Positions 2,450 to 44,916 of a DNA stretch of 64,000 nucleotides are shown one piece after another. The translations under genes and the position numbers were made by a program. The stretch's first letter is position 1; each line of letters begins with the position of its first letter. The stretch lies in sequence record PZ347775.1; one strand, given 5' to 3'. The notes beneath the pieces are model-generated. The model had not been told where the DNA came from. It was given only the letters and a program-made list of their open reading frames with translations, and did no database searches. The stretch is from a phage.

Positions 2450-2775
2450 TTAGAAAATAAATTTATCCAAGATTGCTCTTTAATTAAAAATGGCTCAGAA
2501 TCATATGCCATTAAACTTTGGGTGATTAGTCCTTTAAAAGGCCCATCAATAAATTCCATGGTAAAATATGGAATTTTATTCATTAATCTTGCATTAGGAG
2601 CAGTGCACAAAACTCTGCATCCTTTGAATACGCCTTTTTGTAATTTGTATTGCTTAGGGTAAAATTCGCTCAAGACGTTGTTATTTGCCAAAATTTCAAA
2701 ATGATTCACCAATTTATTTTTAATAGTTTTTGGCGAAAAATAAAGATATTCGAAAAGTTGCGTGTCTGTCATCAT
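2446..2775 (-). CDS. hypothetical protein (vs.7 position)
   Basis: start set at ATG 2775-2773 giving ATGA overlap with upstream stop 2774-2772. Confidence 0.55.
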
Positions 2776-3359
2776 TGCATTCCGATTACGAAAAACTGTG
2801 GACGAGTAATACCACCAATGCAACATTTACTATTGCAGCAGTAATGTACAGTGTCAATATGGACACTATAAATTTTATCCATATCGGGAGCTTTAACAGG
2901 CTCATCGATTATATACAAAATCCGCGAAAGCGATAAACCTCTGAACTTGCTTCCTTTATTACCGATAAAACTACGGACAGAATCGGTAAATAAGCGGAAT
3001 CGAATATCATCGCCAGAATAACGAGAAAATTCTTTTTTAATGTGGCCTGCAGAAATTTTAGCGTAAGCTGAAGTATTAGAAAGAACAATAACTGTTCCAC
3101 CATCATACAGCCAATTAGCAGCAAAGTTAGTCACAGCAGTTGATTTACCGGATTGTCTGCCACCATCTAATCGAAGTGTGCAATACTGCTTGAGTAAGTC
3201 TTCAAATGGTGGGATATAATCGTTTTTACAAATTTCTTCTACTCTAGCATCAGAATGGTGTGTAAAAGCATTCATCAGGGATAGATAAGGACCAGTTAAA
3301 AATGTTCTCATTTTATTCTCTCTAAATTTGGGCCATTCCATGGCGCATGAATTGTCCAT
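2772..3359 (-). CDS. P-loop NTPase of unknown function, sitting where T4 has vs.8/denV
   Basis: Walker A GGRQSGKST, Walker B-like LYIIDEP, Cys-rich tail HYCCNSKCC; start ambiguous (ATG at 3359, 3341 or 3311); no resemblance to endonuclease V. Confidence 0.6.
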   Translation of the reverse strand: MDNSCAMEWPKFRENKMRTFLTGPYLSLMNAFTHHSDARVEEICKNDYIPPFEDLLKQYCTLRLDGGRQSGKSTAVTNFAANWLYDGGTVIVLSNTSAYAKISAGHIKKEFSRYSGDDIRFRLFTDSVRSFIGNKGSKFRGLSLSRILYIIDEPVKAPDMDKIYSVHIDTVHYCCNSKCCIGGITRPQFFVIGMQ

Positions 3360-3464
3360 TTCTGTATTTACCCATTACCGCACTTGGGCTCGACCTTATT
3401 ACAGGTTGGCGGGAATCCCTCATAGAACCATGAGGTCCAGCTTGTTCCCATATTTCTTATTTGC

Positions 3465-3938
3465 TTATTTGAATGATTTGACGTACTGAATAGAGCCTTT
3501 GCTATTCACGAAAGCGATTTTACCATTTTTATTATACATGGTAGCAGTACGCTGATAGCCATAAGTTTGCTTACCAGATTGATAACCAACTAATGCAAAA
3601 TTATCTTCACCCATTTTATTCTGTTTAGCACGAATGCGTTCATGCCCATGCGCCATAAGAACCTTAGCATCACCAGTTGCAATGGATCTACGAGTTTTTT
3701 CATCTTCAACTGTATTAACAAAGTCGTCAAATGAATCAAATTTAGCATGGGATTTATTATACAGTTTTCCATCTACTGCATAATTGTATCCTTGTACATC
3801 CATCTCAACTTCTGTACCATCATCTAATACAGCAGTGATTTTTTGACCTTTTTTAAATTTCAAAAGATCAGTAAAAGATTCAGCAATAATTTGAGAATTA
3901 ATAGCTGCTTCAGTAATAAATTCTTGATATGTTTTCAT
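3465..3938 (-). CDS. internal protein with capsid-targeting sequence (IPII/IPIII locus)
   Basis: N-terminus MKTYQEFITEA matches the T4 internal-protein targeting leader with an (L/I)xE cleavage site. Confidence 0.75.
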   Translation of the reverse strand: MKTYQEFITEAAINSQIIAESFTDLLKFKKGQKITAVLDDGTEVEMDVQGYNYAVDGKLYNKSHAKFDSFDDFVNTVEDEKTRRSIATGDAKVLMAHGHERIRAKQNKMGEDNFALVGYQSGKQTYGYQRTATMYNKNGKIAFVNSKGSIQYVKSFK

Positions 3939-3954
3939 GTGTATCCTTTAATTT

Positions 3955-4272
3955 TTATTCTTTAGGGAAGTTTTTAGAATATGCATCATAAAGCTTATTT
4001 CCAATACGGCGGAAAACTCTAGCCGCAAAACGATTTTCTGGGTTTTTAATCATGATTTGCATCATATAAGTACCCGCGTCAGAAAGAGCTTCTTCATAGT
4101 ACCCGTTAATTTCTTTAAGAGTCCTACGTTTACCACCAGGACCATCAACAGTGATTTTCCATTTACCTGTAGAAGTGCGACTTGGCGGCTCAACTTGTTC
4201 AATCCAGATATAACCGCCTTCTACACGTTGTCCTTGGGCAGATTCTGCAATAAATTCTTTAAACGTTTTCAT
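3955..4272 (-). CDS. internal protein with capsid-targeting sequence (IPII/IPIII locus)
   Basis: N-terminus MKTFKEFIAESA; 105 aa; adjacent to lysozyme gene as in T4. Confidence 0.75.
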   Translation of the reverse strand: MKTFKEFIAESAQGQRVEGGYIWIEQVEPPSRTSTGKWKITVDGPGGKRRTLKEINGYYEEALSDAGTYMMQIMIKNPENRFAARVFRRIGNKLYDAYSKNFPKE

Positions 4273-4310
4273 ATGGTTCCTTTAAATATTTTAATTAGTA
4301 ACTATGAATA

Positions 4311-4339
4311 TACTATCACAGTTCTAGGAGAAAGTAAAC
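4311..4339 (-). promoter_or_regulatory. putative early promoter upstream of internal-protein gene
   Basis: minus strand GTTTAC followed about 17 nt later by TGTGATAGTAT; same module recurs at 8.7 kb and 12.1-12.9 kb. Confidence 0.4.
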
Positions 4340-4343
4340 AACT

Positions 4344-4874
<531 letters not shown>

Positions 4875-8904: not shown

Positions 8905-9378
8905 TTATTTGATTTGTTTAGCAGACCAAATGCGGTCTTTAATAATTTTTTGGATGTCTTCAACATACTCAAGAGAGTGAACATGTGGATTATCTTTGAA
9001 ACTATAGGCACGGGCTAACTTTTGGCCTTCGGTTTTGATTACTAAAAGCTCTTTAAGGATAGCTTCATACTTAGCGATAATTCCTTTAACAATATTTTTT
9101 TCTTGTGTAGCTTTAGGATCTGCTTTAGGAGCAGGTTTACCCGAAGCCTTTGCAAAAGCAGCACCAGTAGCAACTAAACTTTTCCAGGCCATACTAACCG
9201 CATTTCCCGTAAATCCTTCGGCTTTCATATCACGAGCAAATTGGAATCGTGATTCATCGGAAGCATCTTTATAGGAATATTTACCCGCGGCAATGGCAGC
9301 TTTTGCAACAGCTTGAATTTCAGTGCTAGATGCTTCATTTAACACCGCTTCATTTAAAAATTGAGCATATGATTTCAT
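8905..9378 (-). CDS. hypothetical protein with capsid-targeting-like leader (candidate internal protein)
   Basis: N-terminus MKSYAQFLNEA resembles the MKTYQEFIxEA leader; Ala/Lys-rich; flanked by twin hairpins. Confidence 0.55.
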   Translation of the reverse strand: MKSYAQFLNEAVLNEASSTEIQAVAKAAIAAGKYSYKDASDESRFQFARDMKAEGFTGNAVSMAWKSLVATGAAFAKASGKPAPKADPKATQEKNIVKGIIAKYEAILKELLVIKTEGQKLARAYSFKDNPHVHSLEYVEDIQKIIKDRIWSAKQIK

Positions 9379-12198: not shown

Positions 12199-12507
12199 CT
12201 ATTTTATTCCGCGTGATGCAATTGTGTTCTGCCGTTTAACACCAGTTTGTTTAAAGTCATGATTGTCGATTTGATCGGTACGAGCAACACCGAATGATGA
12301 TTTAATCTTAGCTTTAGATCCTTTAGTTATAGAAATAAACATCTCGGAAGCCCCTTTCTTAAAGTCCGAGGCGATTACTTCAACGCCGTTCTTAGCAAGT
12401 GACCTCAGAATTGCCTCCGCGTACTCATCATCAAGACTCGCCTGAGTATTAATAACGAATGTCTTTGGTGCAGTCGCTTCATTGATAAATTCTTGATATG
12501 TTTTCAT
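12199..12507 (-). CDS. internal protein with capsid-targeting sequence (ipI locus)
   Basis: start set at MKTYQEFINEA; ORF-track start 12519 adds four residues. Confidence 0.7.
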   Translation of the reverse strand: MKTYQEFINEATAPKTFVINTQASLDDEYAEAILRSLAKNGVEVIASDFKKGASEMFISITKGSKAKIKSSFGVARTDQIDNHDFKQTGVKRQNTIASRGIK

Positions 12508-12574: not shown

Positions 12575-12847
12575 TTATTTTAAATAAATTGCATATTTTT
12601 TATAACCAGCCGTCTCGTGACGCAGACCTTTTTCATTAGCAAAGCGTTCAATATTATTAATTTGATTCTGATCAAGTTCTGAAATATCAAATACAAAAAA
12701 GTTTCGTTTATTTCCTAACGTTACATGATTCGTCAAATCAATGTTATAAAGATGATTTATATTATCAATCATAGTCTTAACAGATTTGCTAATTTTTACT
12801 TCTTCATTAAGAGCAGATTCAACGATAAACTCTTTGAAAGTTTTCAT
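12575..12847 (-). CDS. internal protein with capsid-targeting sequence (ipI locus)
   Basis: N-terminus MKTFKEFIVESA; 90 aa. Confidence 0.7.
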   Translation of the reverse strand: MKTFKEFIVESALNEEVKISKSVKTMIDNINHLYNIDLTNHVTLGNKRNFFVFDISELDQNQINNIERFANEKGLRHETAGYKKYAIYLK

Positions 12848-12867
12848 TTTATTTTCCTAATTAATTT

Positions 12868-12907
12868 TGATGAGGTAATAGTATCACTACCTCATCAACG
12901 TGTAAAC
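12868..12907 (-). promoter_or_regulatory. early promoter / stem-loop cassette copy
   Basis: minus strand GTTTAC; perfect 9-bp inverted repeat GATGAGGTA/TACCTCATC enclosing the -10-like GTGATACTAT. Confidence 0.4.
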
Positions 12908-39549: not shown

Positions 39550-41174
<1,625 letters not shown>

Positions 41175-41175
<1 letters not shown>

Positions 41176-41429
41176 TGGAAGGTTTAATTGAAGCTATTAA
41201 ATCAAACGACCTCGTAGCCGCTCGTAAATTATTTGCTGAAGCCATGGCTGCAAGAACGATTGATTTAATTAAAGAAGAAAAAATCGCTATCGCTCGTAAT
41301 TTCTTAATTGAAGGTGAAGAACCTGAAGACGAGGATGAAGATGAAGATGATGACGAAGATAGCGATGATAAAGACGACAAAAAAGACAAAGACTCTGATG
41401 AAGATGACGAAGACGAGGATGATGAATAA
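41175..41429 (+). CDS. 67: prohead core protein gp67
   Basis: 84 aa with extreme acidic Glu/Asp tract; TAATG overlaps on both sides. Confidence 0.9.
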
Positions 41430-41854
41430 TGCTTCTGATCCCTGAAACTCATGAATTAGTTCTCGAGAATGTCGAAGCACTTATTCCTGAAGCACAGGGT
41501 CGCTTTGACGAATTGTCTTCTGCTTTAAATAAAGACGATATAAATACAATTATCGAGAATATGCTTGATGATGAAACTGATTTAGCAGTTGCATTAGCTT
41601 CTATTAATGAAAACATGCCGTTAAATGAATTCATTGTTAAGCACGTTTCAGCTCGTGGTGAAATTACACGTACTAAAGATCGCAAAACACGCGAACGTAA
41701 TGCATTTCAAACCACTGGGCTGTCTAAAGCAAAACGTAGACAAATTGCTCGCAAAGCTACCAAAACGAAGATTGCCAATCCAGCAGGTCAATCTCGTGCT
41801 CAGCGTAAGCGTAAAAAAGCTCTTAAACGCCGTAAAGCATTAGGATTAAGCTAA
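41429..41854 (+). CDS. 68: prohead core protein gp68
   Basis: 141 aa as in T4. Confidence 0.9.
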
Positions 41855-42492
41855 TGAATGAACCCCAATTATTAATTGAAACTTGGGGTCAACCTGGCGA
41901 AATTATTGATGGCGTGCCAATGCTTGAATCCCACGATGGAAAAGACCTAGGTTTAAAACCGGGTTTATACATCGAAGGAATATTCATGCAAGCAGAAGTC
42001 GTCAATAGAAATAAACGTCTTTATCCAAAACGCATATTAGAAAAAGCGGTAAAAGACTATATCAATGAGCAAGTTTTAACTAAACAAGCTCTCGGAGAAT
42101 TAAATCATCCTCCACGCGCTAATGTTGACCCGATGCAAGCCGCTATCATTATAGAAGATATGTGGTGGAAAGGAAATGACGTATACGGACGAGCTCGTGT
42201 TATTGAAGGTGACCATGGTCCTGGAGATAAATTAGCAGCTAATATTCGTGCCGGATGGATTCCAGGAGTTTCTTCTCGTGGATTAGGTTCATTGACTGAC
42301 ACAAATAAAGGTTATCGTATCGTAAACGAAGGATTCAAATTAACTGTAGGTGTTGATGCAGTATGGGGTCCAAGTGCTCCAGATGCATGGGTAACTCCTA
42401 AGGAAATTACCGAATCACAGACGGCGGAAGCCGATACAAGTGCCGATGACGCCTATATGGCTCTCGCAGAGGCCATGAAAAAAGCGTTATAA
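41854..42492 (+). CDS. 21: prohead core scaffold protein and protease gp21
   Basis: 212 aa as in T4. Confidence 0.93.
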   Translation: MNEPQLLIETWGQPGEIIDGVPMLESHDGKDLGLKPGLYIEGIFMQAEVVNRNKRLYPKRILEKAVKDYINEQVLTKQALGELNHPPRANVDPMQAAIIIEDMWWKGNDVYGRARVIEGDHGPGDKLAANIRAGWIPGVSSRGLGSLTDTNKGYRIVNEGFKLTVGVDAVWGPSAPDAWVTPKEITESQTAEADTSADDAYMALAEAMKKAL

Positions 42493-42495
42493 ATA
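42488..42495 (+). promoter_or_regulatory. late promoter (TATAAATA) for gene 22
   Basis: exact TATAAATA overlapping the gene 21 stop. Confidence 0.55.
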
Positions 42496-42522
42496 TTATT
42501 ATCTAAACAACAGGACTACAAA

Positions 42523-43332
42523 ATGCTTAAAGAACAACTGATTGCCGAAGCGCAGAAAATTGATGCTTCCGTTGCTCTTGATAGTATTTTCGAATCAGTT
42601 AATATTTCTCCGGAAGCAAAAGAAACTTTCGGCACTGTATTCGAAGCTACCGTCAAGCAGCACGCCGTTAAATTAGCTGAATCTCATATCGCTAAAATTG
42701 CTGAAAAAGCAGAAGAAGAAGTAGAAAAAAATAAAGAAGAAGCCGAAGAAAAAGCTGAGAAGAAAATCGCTGAGCAAGCTTCTAAATTCATCGACCATCT
42801 TGCGAAAGAATGGCTCGCTGAAAATAAATTAGCAGTTGATAAAGGCATCAAAGCCGAACTGTTTGAATCCATGCTTGGTGGATTAAAAGAGCTCTTTGTT
42901 GAACACAACGTTGTTGTTCCAGAAGAATCAGTTGATGTTGTGGCTGAAATGGAAGAAGAGCTGCAAGAACATAAAGAAGAATCAGCTCGTCTGTTCGAAG
43001 AACTCAATATGCGCGACGCATATATCAATTATGTGCAGCGTGAAGTGGCATTGAGCGAAAGTACTAAAGATCTGACTGAGTCTCAAAAAGAAAAAGTCTC
43101 TGCTCTGGTCGAAGGTATGGATTATTCAGATGAATTCTCAAGTAAATTGAGTGCCATCGTAGAAATGGTGAAGAAGTCTAATAAAGATGAAAGCACTATT
43201 ACTGAGGGTATAAATACTCCTGATACTGAAGCAGCCGGACTGAATTTCGTCACTGAAGCTGTAGAAGATAAAGCTGCACCTGGTGCAGAAGATATTGTAA
43301 GTGTATATGCGAAAGTCGCATCTCGTTTCTAA
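42523..43332 (+). CDS. 22: major prohead scaffolding core protein gp22
   Basis: 269 aa acidic coiled-coil. Confidence 0.93.
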   Translation: MLKEQLIAEAQKIDASVALDSIFESVNISPEAKETFGTVFEATVKQHAVKLAESHIAKIAEKAEEEVEKNKEEAEEKAEKKIAEQASKFIDHLAKEWLAENKLAVDKGIKAELFESMLGGLKELFVEHNVVVPEESVDVVAEMEEELQEHKEESARLFEELNMRDAYINYVQREVALSESTKDLTESQKEKVSALVEGMDYSDEFSSKLSAIVEMVKKSNKDESTITEGINTPDTEAAGLNFVTEAVEDKAAPGAEDIVSVYAKVASRF

Positions 43333-43350
43333 TTTTAAAGGTTAACACAA

Positions 43351-44916
43351 ATGACTATCAAAACTAAAGCTGAACTTTTGAACAAATGGAAGCCATTACT
43401 GGAAGGTGAAGGTTTACCGGAAATTGCTAATAGCAAACAAGCGATTATCGCTAAAATCTTTGAAAACCAGGAAAAAGATTTCCAGACAGCTCCAGAATAC
43501 AAAGACGAAAAAATCGCTCAGGCGTTCGGTTCTTTCTTAACAGAAGCTGAAATCGGTGGTGACCACGGTTACAATGCTACTAACATCGCTGCAGGTCAGA
43601 CTTCTGGCGCAGTAACTCAGATTGGTCCGGCTGTTATGGGTATGGTACGTCGTGCTATTCCTAACCTGATTGCTTTCGATATTTGCGGTGTTCAACCGAT
43701 GAGCAGCCCGACCGGTCAGGTATTCGCACTGCGCGCAGTATATGGTAAAGATCCGATCGCTGCCGATGCTAAAGAAGCATTCCACCCAATGTATGGTCCA
43801 GACGCAATGTTCTCTGGTCAGGGTGCTGCTAAGAAATTCCCAGCTCTGGCTGCTAGCACACAAACTACAGTAGGTGATATCTATACTCACTTCTTCCAGG
43901 ACACTGGTACTGTATATCTGCAGGCTTCTGTTCAAGTAACAATCGATGCTGGCGCGACTGATGCAACTAAATTAGATGCTGAAATTAAAAAACAAATGGA
44001 AGCTGGTGCACTGGTAGAAATCGCTGAAGGTATGGCTACTTCTATCGCTGAACTCCAGGAAGGTTTCAACGGTTCTACCGATAACCCATGGAATGAAATG
44101 GGCTTCCGTATCGATAAGCAAGTTATCGAAGCTAAATCTCGCCAGCTGAAAGCTGCTTACTCTATCGAATTAGCACAAGACCTCCGCGCTGTTCACGGTA
44201 TGGATGCTGATGCTGAACTGTCTGGTATTCTGGCTACCGAAATCATGCTGGAAATCAACCGTGAAATTGTTGATTGGATTAACTACTCCGCACAGGTTGG
44301 TAAATCTGGTATGACCCTGACTCCGGGTTCTAAAGCTGGTGTATTTGACTTCCAGGATCCAATTGATATTCGTGGTGCTCGCTGGGCGGGTGAATCCTTT
44401 AAAGCTCTGTTGTTCCAGATTGACAAAGAAGCAGTTGAAATTGCTCGTCAGACCGGTCGTGGTGAAGGTAACTTCATTATCGCTTCCCGTAACGTAGTTA
44501 ACGTTCTGGCTTCAGTTGATACTGGCATTTCTTATGCTGCACAGGGTCTGGCTACCGGCTTCAACACTGATACTACCAAGTCAGTATTTGCTGGTGTTCT
44601 GGGTGGTAAATACCGTGTATATATCGATCAGTATGCTAAACAGGATTATTTCACTGTAGGTTATAAAGGTCCGAACGAAATGGATGCTGGTATTTACTAT
44701 GCTCCATATGTAGCTCTGACTCCGCTGCGTGGTTCCGATCCGAAGAACTTCCAACCAGTAATGGGATTCAAAACTCGTTACGGTATCGGTATCAACCCAT
44801 TTGCAGAATCCGCTGCTCAGGCTCCGGCTTCTCGCATCCAGAGCGGTATGCCTTCTATTCTGAATAGCCTTGGTAAAAACGCTTACTTCCGCCGTGTATA
44901 TGTTAAAGGTATCTAA
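43351..44916 (+). CDS. 23: major capsid protein gp23
   Basis: 521 aa, MTIKTKAELLNKWKPLLEGEGLPEIANSKQAIIAK... as recalled for T4 gp23; host-like codon usage. Confidence 0.97.
   Translation: MTIKTKAELLNKWKPLLEGEGLPEIANSKQAIIAKIFENQEKDFQTAPEYKDEKIAQAFGSFLTEAEIGGDHGYNATNIAAGQTSGAVTQIGPAVMGMVRRAIPNLIAFDICGVQPMSSPTGQVFALRAVYGKDPIAADAKEAFHPMYGPDAMFSGQGAAKKFPALAASTQTTVGDIYTHFFQDTGTVYLQASVQVTIDAGATDATKLDAEIKKQMEAGALVEIAEGMATSIAELQEGFNGSTDNPWNEMGFRIDKQVIEAKSRQLKAAYSIELAQDLRAVHGMDADAELSGILATEIMLEINREIVDWINYSAQVGKSGMTLTPGSKAGVFDFQDPIDIRGARWAGESFKALLFQIDKEAVEIARQTGRGEGNFIIASRNVVNVLASVDTGISYAAQGLATGFNTDTTKSVFAGVLGGKYRVYIDQYAKQDYFTVGYKGPNEMDAGIYYAPYVALTPLRGSDPKNFQPVMGFKTRYGIGINPFAESAAQAPASRIQSGMPSILNSLGKNAYFRRVYVKGI

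Follow-up and report, generated by a model that had tools for sequence, protein, structure and literature searches.

[quoted passage not shown] In T4, the IP precursors dock, by means of a short N-terminal capsid-targeting sequence (CTS), into the prohead's gp22 scaffolding core (Mullaney & Black 1996, summarised in PMC9026906). Three of these proteins from the 'two Ip loci', Ip1, Ip2 and Ip3, are inhibitors of GmrSD type IV restriction enzymes, with a different enzyme for each (PMC12373910), ipIII is required on ECOR17 (PMC9391042), and phage Bas37 encodes at its ipI locus a CTS protein (Bas37_0260) that inhibits McrBC (bioRxiv 10.1101/2025.11.20.689424).

The DNA analysed here, which we call the window, is a 64-kb segment (64,000 nucleotides) of a Tequatrovirus (T4-like) genome. 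An earlier note had placed two leader-bearing ORFs of 157 and 105 aa at the IPII/IPIII position of this genome, and both were confirmed on the minus strand, at 3465..3938 and 3955..4272, beside the lysozyme gene e. The two ORFs, here called ip4 and ip10, are sited between e and vs.8, in synteny with T4 ipIII/ipII, that is, in the e-proximal hypervariable IP locus. The features to which the text refers are as follows, with a slash marking the predicted cleavage site.

2772..3311 (/3359), minus strand: vs.8 homolog, a P-loop protein of unknown function, 90% identical to T4 vs.8 (PHROG 1488)
3360..3449, minus strand: downstream junction, where homology to T4 starts again, at the 5' end of vs.8 as annotated in T4
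3450..4242, minus strand: segment replaced relative to T4, about 0.79 kb, comprising the ip10 body, the spacer, ip4 and a short 3' tail; the T4 counterpart is the ipIII body, ipII and denV, about 1.45 kb
3465..3938, minus strand: ip4 (ipIV), ORF of the 157-aa precursor, which starts MKTYQEFITE/AAINS
3909-3938, minus strand: ip4 leader MKTYQEFITE, codons 1-10
3939..3954, minus strand: ip10-ip4 spacer of 16 nt, carrying the ip4 ribosome-binding site (RBS) AAAGGA
3955..4272, minus strand: ip10, ORF of the 105-aa precursor, which starts MKTFKEFIAE/SAQGQ
4243-4272, minus strand: ip10 leader MKTFKEFIAE, codons 1-10
4273..4343, minus strand: ip10 5' module, homologous to the T4 ipIII upstream region
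4278-4282, minus strand: ip10 RBS AAGGA, in the upstream sequence
4334-4339, minus strand: GTTTAC, resembling a T4 early promoter, followed by an 18-nt spacer and TAGTAT at 4310-4315
4344..4838, minus strand: gene e, soluble lysozyme, 97% aa identity to T4 e (Pfam Phage_lysozyme), a conserved flank
41854..42492, plus strand: gene 21, prohead protease (Pfam Peptidase_S77, E=1.5e-111), expected to cleave off the leaders
39589-43332, adjoining gene 21: portal protein, gp67, gp68 and gp22 scaffold (Pfam T4_CASP, Portal_T4, GP67)

Read outward from e, the gene order is ipIII, ipII, denV in T4 and the 105-aa gene followed by the 157-aa gene, without denV, in the window. Inspection of the 16-nt spacer revealed no promoter, and ip10 and ip4 are therefore presumably co-transcribed. 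Both precursors begin with a recognizable CTS: compared with MKTYQEFIAE, the leader of Ip4 matches at 9/10 positions and that of Ip10 at 8/10, T4 IPI likewise starting MKTFKEF. A scan of all six frames of the window with the pattern MK-x-[YF]-x-[EDQ]-F-[ILMV]-x-E yielded five matches, all at the first codon of minus-strand ORFs, which is far above chance for a 10-residue pattern. The context expected for gp21 cleavage at residues 8-10 (I/L-x-E followed by a small residue) reads I-T-E/A in Ip4 and I-A-E/S in Ip10. The predicted mature proteins, with properties computed from the sequence, are basic, as are IPII and IPIII, and consist of 147 aa (16.5 kDa, pI 9.1) for Ip4 and 95 aa (10.9 kDa, pI 9.6) for Ip10. 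The partner machinery of the internal proteins is encoded in the same window, with Pfam matches to Peptidase_S77, T4_CASP, GP67, Portal_T4 and Gp23 at 39589-44916.

Database comparisons identify both proteins. The longer protein, of 157 aa, matches the PP01 'IpIV internal head protein' at 100% identity and K3 Ip4 ('Ip4 [Enterobacteria phage K3]', UniProt Q38388) at 99%, and phages T2, RB5, Shfl2 ('Ip4') and GiZh ('ipIV') encode its mature part unchanged (100% identity). It matches Pfam DUF7412 (PF24183) over its full length (residues 1-157, E=5.7e-96, 319 bits with a curated cut-off of 27) as well as PHROG 3155, 'internal virion protein' (E=6e-102). The shorter protein, of 105 aa, shows 97% identity to the 'Ip10 internal head protein' of PP01 and 70% to 'Ip10 [Shigella phage SP18]', with a full-length profile match to PHROG 3966 (E=2.4e-33) and no Pfam match in the profile search. 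By near-identity, then, the 105-aa and 157-aa proteins are the ones named Ip10 and Ip4. The Ip4/IpIV of K3, T2 and PP01 is the same protein in the same surroundings next to e/ip10, with no difference of substance, except that in T2, as in Bas44, ip4 stands alone beside e, whereas in the window ip10 lies between the two. The Ip10 family of PHROG 3966 includes the proteins of PP01 and Shigella phage SP18, VR7 ip10 and RB69 ORF124c, and the 105-aa ORF of the window occupies the same position. The Ip10-Ip4 arrangement is already known, in that both proteins are named in GenBank and UniProt records and the gene swap has been documented since 1994, the year in which Repoila et al. are said to have described the polymorphism of the IP loci. 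What the genome carries is a common configuration, annotated in many GenBank records and related to the T2-type locus, and its recognition is a confirmation that has little weight as a discovery; its practical use lies in annotation and in the prediction of host range.

The limits of the exchanged segment were defined by a three-way DNA alignment of the window, T4 and PP01, in which near-identity extends through e, the intergenic promoter and RBS, and the 30-nt leader. Homology to T4 DNA is lost immediately after the leader and is back at about position 3449, directly beyond the ip4 stop codon; the equivalent place in T4 is where denV has just ended. A small hairpin (CCTCAT/ATGAGG) was found by inverted repeat search at 3418-3435, within the downstream junction. 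The early-promoter-like element GTTTAC...GTGATA(G/C)TAT, the RBS and the leader, ATGAAAAC.T.T.AAGA.TTTAT, align among ip10 of the window, T4 ipIII, T4 ipII and the genes of the ipI locus, and on the strength of this shared 5' module the turnover of alleles would proceed by homologous recombination, in mixed infections, between the conserved promoter-RBS-leader module on one side and the conserved downstream flank on the other.

The distribution of the genes was explored by tblastn searches with the mature parts of the proteins against 50,697 phage records. Ip4 was found in 471 records (307 at >=95% and 292 at >=99% identity), with homologs of about 70% identity in Klebsiella and Salmonella T4-likes, and Ip10 in 190, including RB69, VR7 and Karamvirus. 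With 261 records for IPIII and 198 for IPII, the T4 pair is no more typical than Ip10-Ip4. The gene layouts next to e are the following.

T4 (NC_000866): e-ipIII-ipII-denV-vs.8
Window, PP01, G50 and BASEL Bas39/Bas40: e-ip10-ip4-vs.8
T2 and Bas44: e-ip4-vs.8
ESh33: e-denV-ip10-ip4-vs.8
Klebsiella phage K65: e-ip4-like-ipII

T4 denV has no tblastn match at E<=1 in the whole 64-kb window. It is missing from the interval that separates the ip genes from vs.8 (window 3360-3464), where T4 carries it; PP01 and T2 likewise lack it, and in ESh33 it lies between e and ip10. With so scattered a presence and position, denV behaves as an independent cassette.

Compared with the PP01 allele, ip4 carries 19 nucleotide differences, every one synonymous and none non-synonymous, and ip10 differs at three synonymous and three non-synonymous codons (Y4F, Q5K, A13Q). 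Judged from the substitutions, ip4 is under purifying selection, and both genes are under selection.

If the biology of T4 is a guide, the CTS of Ip4 and Ip10 would dock the precursors into the gp22 scaffolding core, gp21 would cut after Glu10, and the basic mature proteins of 147 and 95 aa would stay in the head and enter the cell with the DNA. Once in the cell, Ip4 and Ip10 would be expected to counter one of the host's first-line defences, with a modification-dependent (type IV) restriction enzyme as the most likely target. Since all four of the characterised CTS proteins (Ip1, Ip2, Ip3 and Bas37_0260) block type IV restriction, we infer the same role for Ip4 and Ip10. The comparison extends to T4 IPI*, the inhibitor of GmrSD-CT596, and to Bas37_0260, the McrBC inhibitor, both of which are CTS-bearing, injected, non-essential accessory proteins from a hypervariable cassette locus, a description to which Ip4 and Ip10, known here from their genes, can be likened; IPI* and Bas37_0260 differ in being encoded at the other locus, between 57B and the tRNA genes, and in having mature sequences unrelated to those of Ip4 and Ip10. 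Most plausibly, by this analogy, Ip4 and Ip10 would be injected to inhibit a modification-dependent restriction system of some kind or another first-line defence. Taken as a whole, the explanation that the locus is the e-proximal of the two hypervariable T-even IP loci, with the known alleles ip10 and ip4 replacing T4 ipIII-ipII-denV and encoding presumably packaged proteins with a probable anti-restriction role, is one in which we have high confidence. Lacking Ip2 and Ip3, this phage would also be expected to be sensitive to the GmrSD enzymes that those proteins block.

When constructs designated 'ip4-10' were tested against GmrSD variants, no reproducible inhibition was observed (PMC12373910, Suppl. 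Fig. 9), a result that bears on the proteins of the window through constructs matched to them by name only and that may point to a non-GmrSD target. The near-invariance of Ip4 is at odds with rapid arms-race evolution of the Ip4 protein itself and, extending as it does over hundreds of phages, suggests a conserved target and not a rapidly diversifying one. It is tentatively proposed, as a possibility short of an even chance, that Ip4 and/or Ip10 inhibit a first-line defence other than GmrSD, such as a McrBC-like enzyme, another modification-dependent nuclease or a non-restriction sensor of incoming DNA, and that the ORF at 8905-9378 is perhaps an unrecognised IP at a third locus.

The same observations could be taken to mean that Ip4 and/or Ip10 are packaged but serve mainly as basic, DNA- or core-associated parts of the head, helping the prohead to assemble or the DNA to be condensed and ejected, as T4 IPIII does in part, and are not defence inhibitors. 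The high pI of the mature proteins, the extreme conservation of Ip4 over hundreds of phages, with PP01 differences confined to synonymous sites, and the negative result with ip4-10 are all compatible with such a structural role, as is the behaviour of T4 IPIII mutants, which are slower in head assembly and have a burst of about 40% of normal (PMC9026906). The T4 triple IP mutant is, however, viable (PMC9026906), every internal protein for which a function has been found is an inhibitor of type IV restriction, and T4 lacks both proteins while T2 lacks Ip10, a patchy presence that favours an accessory, host-dependent role. We regard a primarily structural function as unlikely and prefer that of an injected inhibitor of host defence.

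The earlier note had proposed allelic replacement at the second IP locus on the grounds that the two ORFs differ in size from T4 IPII and IPIII, given there as about 100 and 194 aa. An alternative to replacement would be that Ip10 and Ip4 are diverged orthologs of IPII and IPIII, their apparent difference in length being due to wrong figures for T4 or to indels, and the proteins do have position, leader and basic charge in common with the T4 pair; with leaders included, the 157-aa protein also aligns weakly (27%) to IPII. The lengths given for T4 nevertheless proved right, as in NC_000866 ipII encodes 100 aa in 303 nt and ipIII encodes 193 aa in 582 nt. In the alignments to T4 IPII and IPIII for which the note had called, only the first 12-17 residues align with the leaders in place and nothing significant is left when they are removed. 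A blastp comparison of the mature parts of Ip4 and Ip10 with those of T4 IPI, IPII and IPIII likewise detected no significant similarity, the best score of 20 bits falling short even in a database of eight sequences; nor are the window's own leader-bearing proteins significantly similar to each other once the leaders are removed. As far as their sequences go, what Ip4 and Ip10 share with IPI, IPII and IPIII is the 10-residue CTS only. The proteins belong, moreover, to separate Pfam and PHROG families, and in Klebsiella phage K65 an Ip4-like gene is the immediate neighbour of an IPII gene, which shows that the two are not allelic forms descended from a single gene. Orthology is accordingly very improbable, and the plain case of IPII and IPIII with wrongly stated lengths does not hold. 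Cassette replacement at the second IP locus, already known from other phages, is supported both by the dissimilarity of the mature parts and by the breaks in T4 DNA homology at the edges of the cassette. With T4 IPII and IPIII (Ip2 and Ip3), Ip4 and Ip10 have in common the locus, the promoter/RBS/leader module and the expected packaging and gp21 processing, and they are similar in basic charge; they differ in size, in their unrelated mature sequences and in that IPII and IPIII inhibit GmrSD, whereas ip4-10 gave no reproducible inhibition of the variants tested. By analogy, Ip4 and Ip10 probably do the same kind of job as IPII and IPIII.

That the two ORFs are chance or decaying leader-bearing remnants, no longer expressed or packaged, might be suggested by the many GenBank records that say just 'hypothetical protein', but has next to no credibility in view of the intact full-length ORFs, each with an RBS, the ratio of 19 synonymous to 0 non-synonymous differences between ip4 and its PP01 allele, the 67 invariant columns kept across Ip4 homologs at 61-82% identity, and the occurrence of both genes in hundreds of independent isolates.

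We infer the ip10 promoter from the similarity of its region to the sequences upstream of T4 ipIII, ipII and ipI; a scan for generic sigma-70 promoters gave no call there. Relative to T4 and PP01, the window is 17 bp shorter at about 4300-4303 on the minus strand, a site that lies between the promoter-like element and the RBS, and this gap removes the right arm of an AT-rich stem-loop (GAATTGTGA...TCACAATT) of the T4 ipIII upstream region. The only three amino acid differences between the Ip10 proteins of the window and PP01 (leader MKTFKEFIAE versus MKTYQEFIAE, and Q versus A at residue 13) all lie in or right after the leader (window 4234-4263), and an IPI-like MKTFKEF start results. Position 4 of the CTS is reported to be important for targeting (PMC9026906), so that F4/K5 in place of Y4/Q5 in Ip10 counts somewhat against its packaging, although T4 IPI has the same MKTFKEF start. 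Recent gene conversion from the ipI-locus gene at 12575-12847 was considered as the source of the MKTFKEF leader of ip10 and was rejected, the two leaders differing at most synonymous sites.

Structural comparison gave no lead on the function of Ip4 and Ip10: a sequence search of the PDB with profiles of both proteins returned nothing significant, and an AlphaFold2 model of Ip10, built from a 3-sequence alignment, reached a pLDDT of 49 and a pTM of 0.32 and was not used. In a profile search of 1.84 billion representative proteins, Ip10 had one true homolog, of 97 aa, along with four long repeat proteins that were rejected as homologs, sharing just a short 'WI..V.PPS.T.G.W'-like hairpin motif. 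The weak profile match covers Ip10 residues ~19-46 (window ~4135-4218) and repeat units of very long bacterial proteins (P0019-P0022), with for instance 14 stretches in a 4265-aa protein, and the motif common to both is a hairpin-like 'WI..V..PPS.T.G.W.I'. The likeness is probably convergent or compositional.

Downstream of the cassette, a TAG stop within window 3311-3440 (minus strand) breaks the N-terminal extension annotated for T4 vs.8, a protein given as 219 aa with its start at ATGAGGGATTCC. For this reason the ATG at 3311 (MRTFL..., 179 aa) is probably the true start of vs.8, as in the annotation of PP01, where the gene has 540 nt, and the gene may be annotated too long in T4.

A third ORF with a CTS-like leader was observed at 8905-9378 (minus strand), encoding a protein of 157 aa that starts MKSYAQFLNE/AV... 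and has a mature pI of 9.5. Upstream of it (to ~9440) lie the sequence TATAAATA, an exact match to the T4 late promoter, and a terminator made up of a GC-rich hairpin and a T-run. T4 does not have the gene and shows a gap there, between e.8 and rnaC; the gene was found in 512 phage records, is called 'hypothetical protein' in all 20 of the records sampled across the ranking, and belongs to PHROG 2280, of unknown function. Its product may be an unrecognised internal protein encoded outside the two classical loci. At the classical ipI locus, two CTS-bearing genes stand in place of ipI, at 12199-12507 and 12575-12847 (both minus strand). The product of the former has 102 aa and begins MKTYQEFINE from an internal ATG, and that of the latter has 90 aa and starts MKTFKEFIVE; the latter gene has a 5' module, with an 11-bp stem-loop at 12867-12898, that is homologous to the T4 ipI upstream region. 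Two genes at the ipI locus have also been reported in Bas37, one of them encoding a McrBC inhibitor (bioRxiv 10.1101/2025.11.20.689424).
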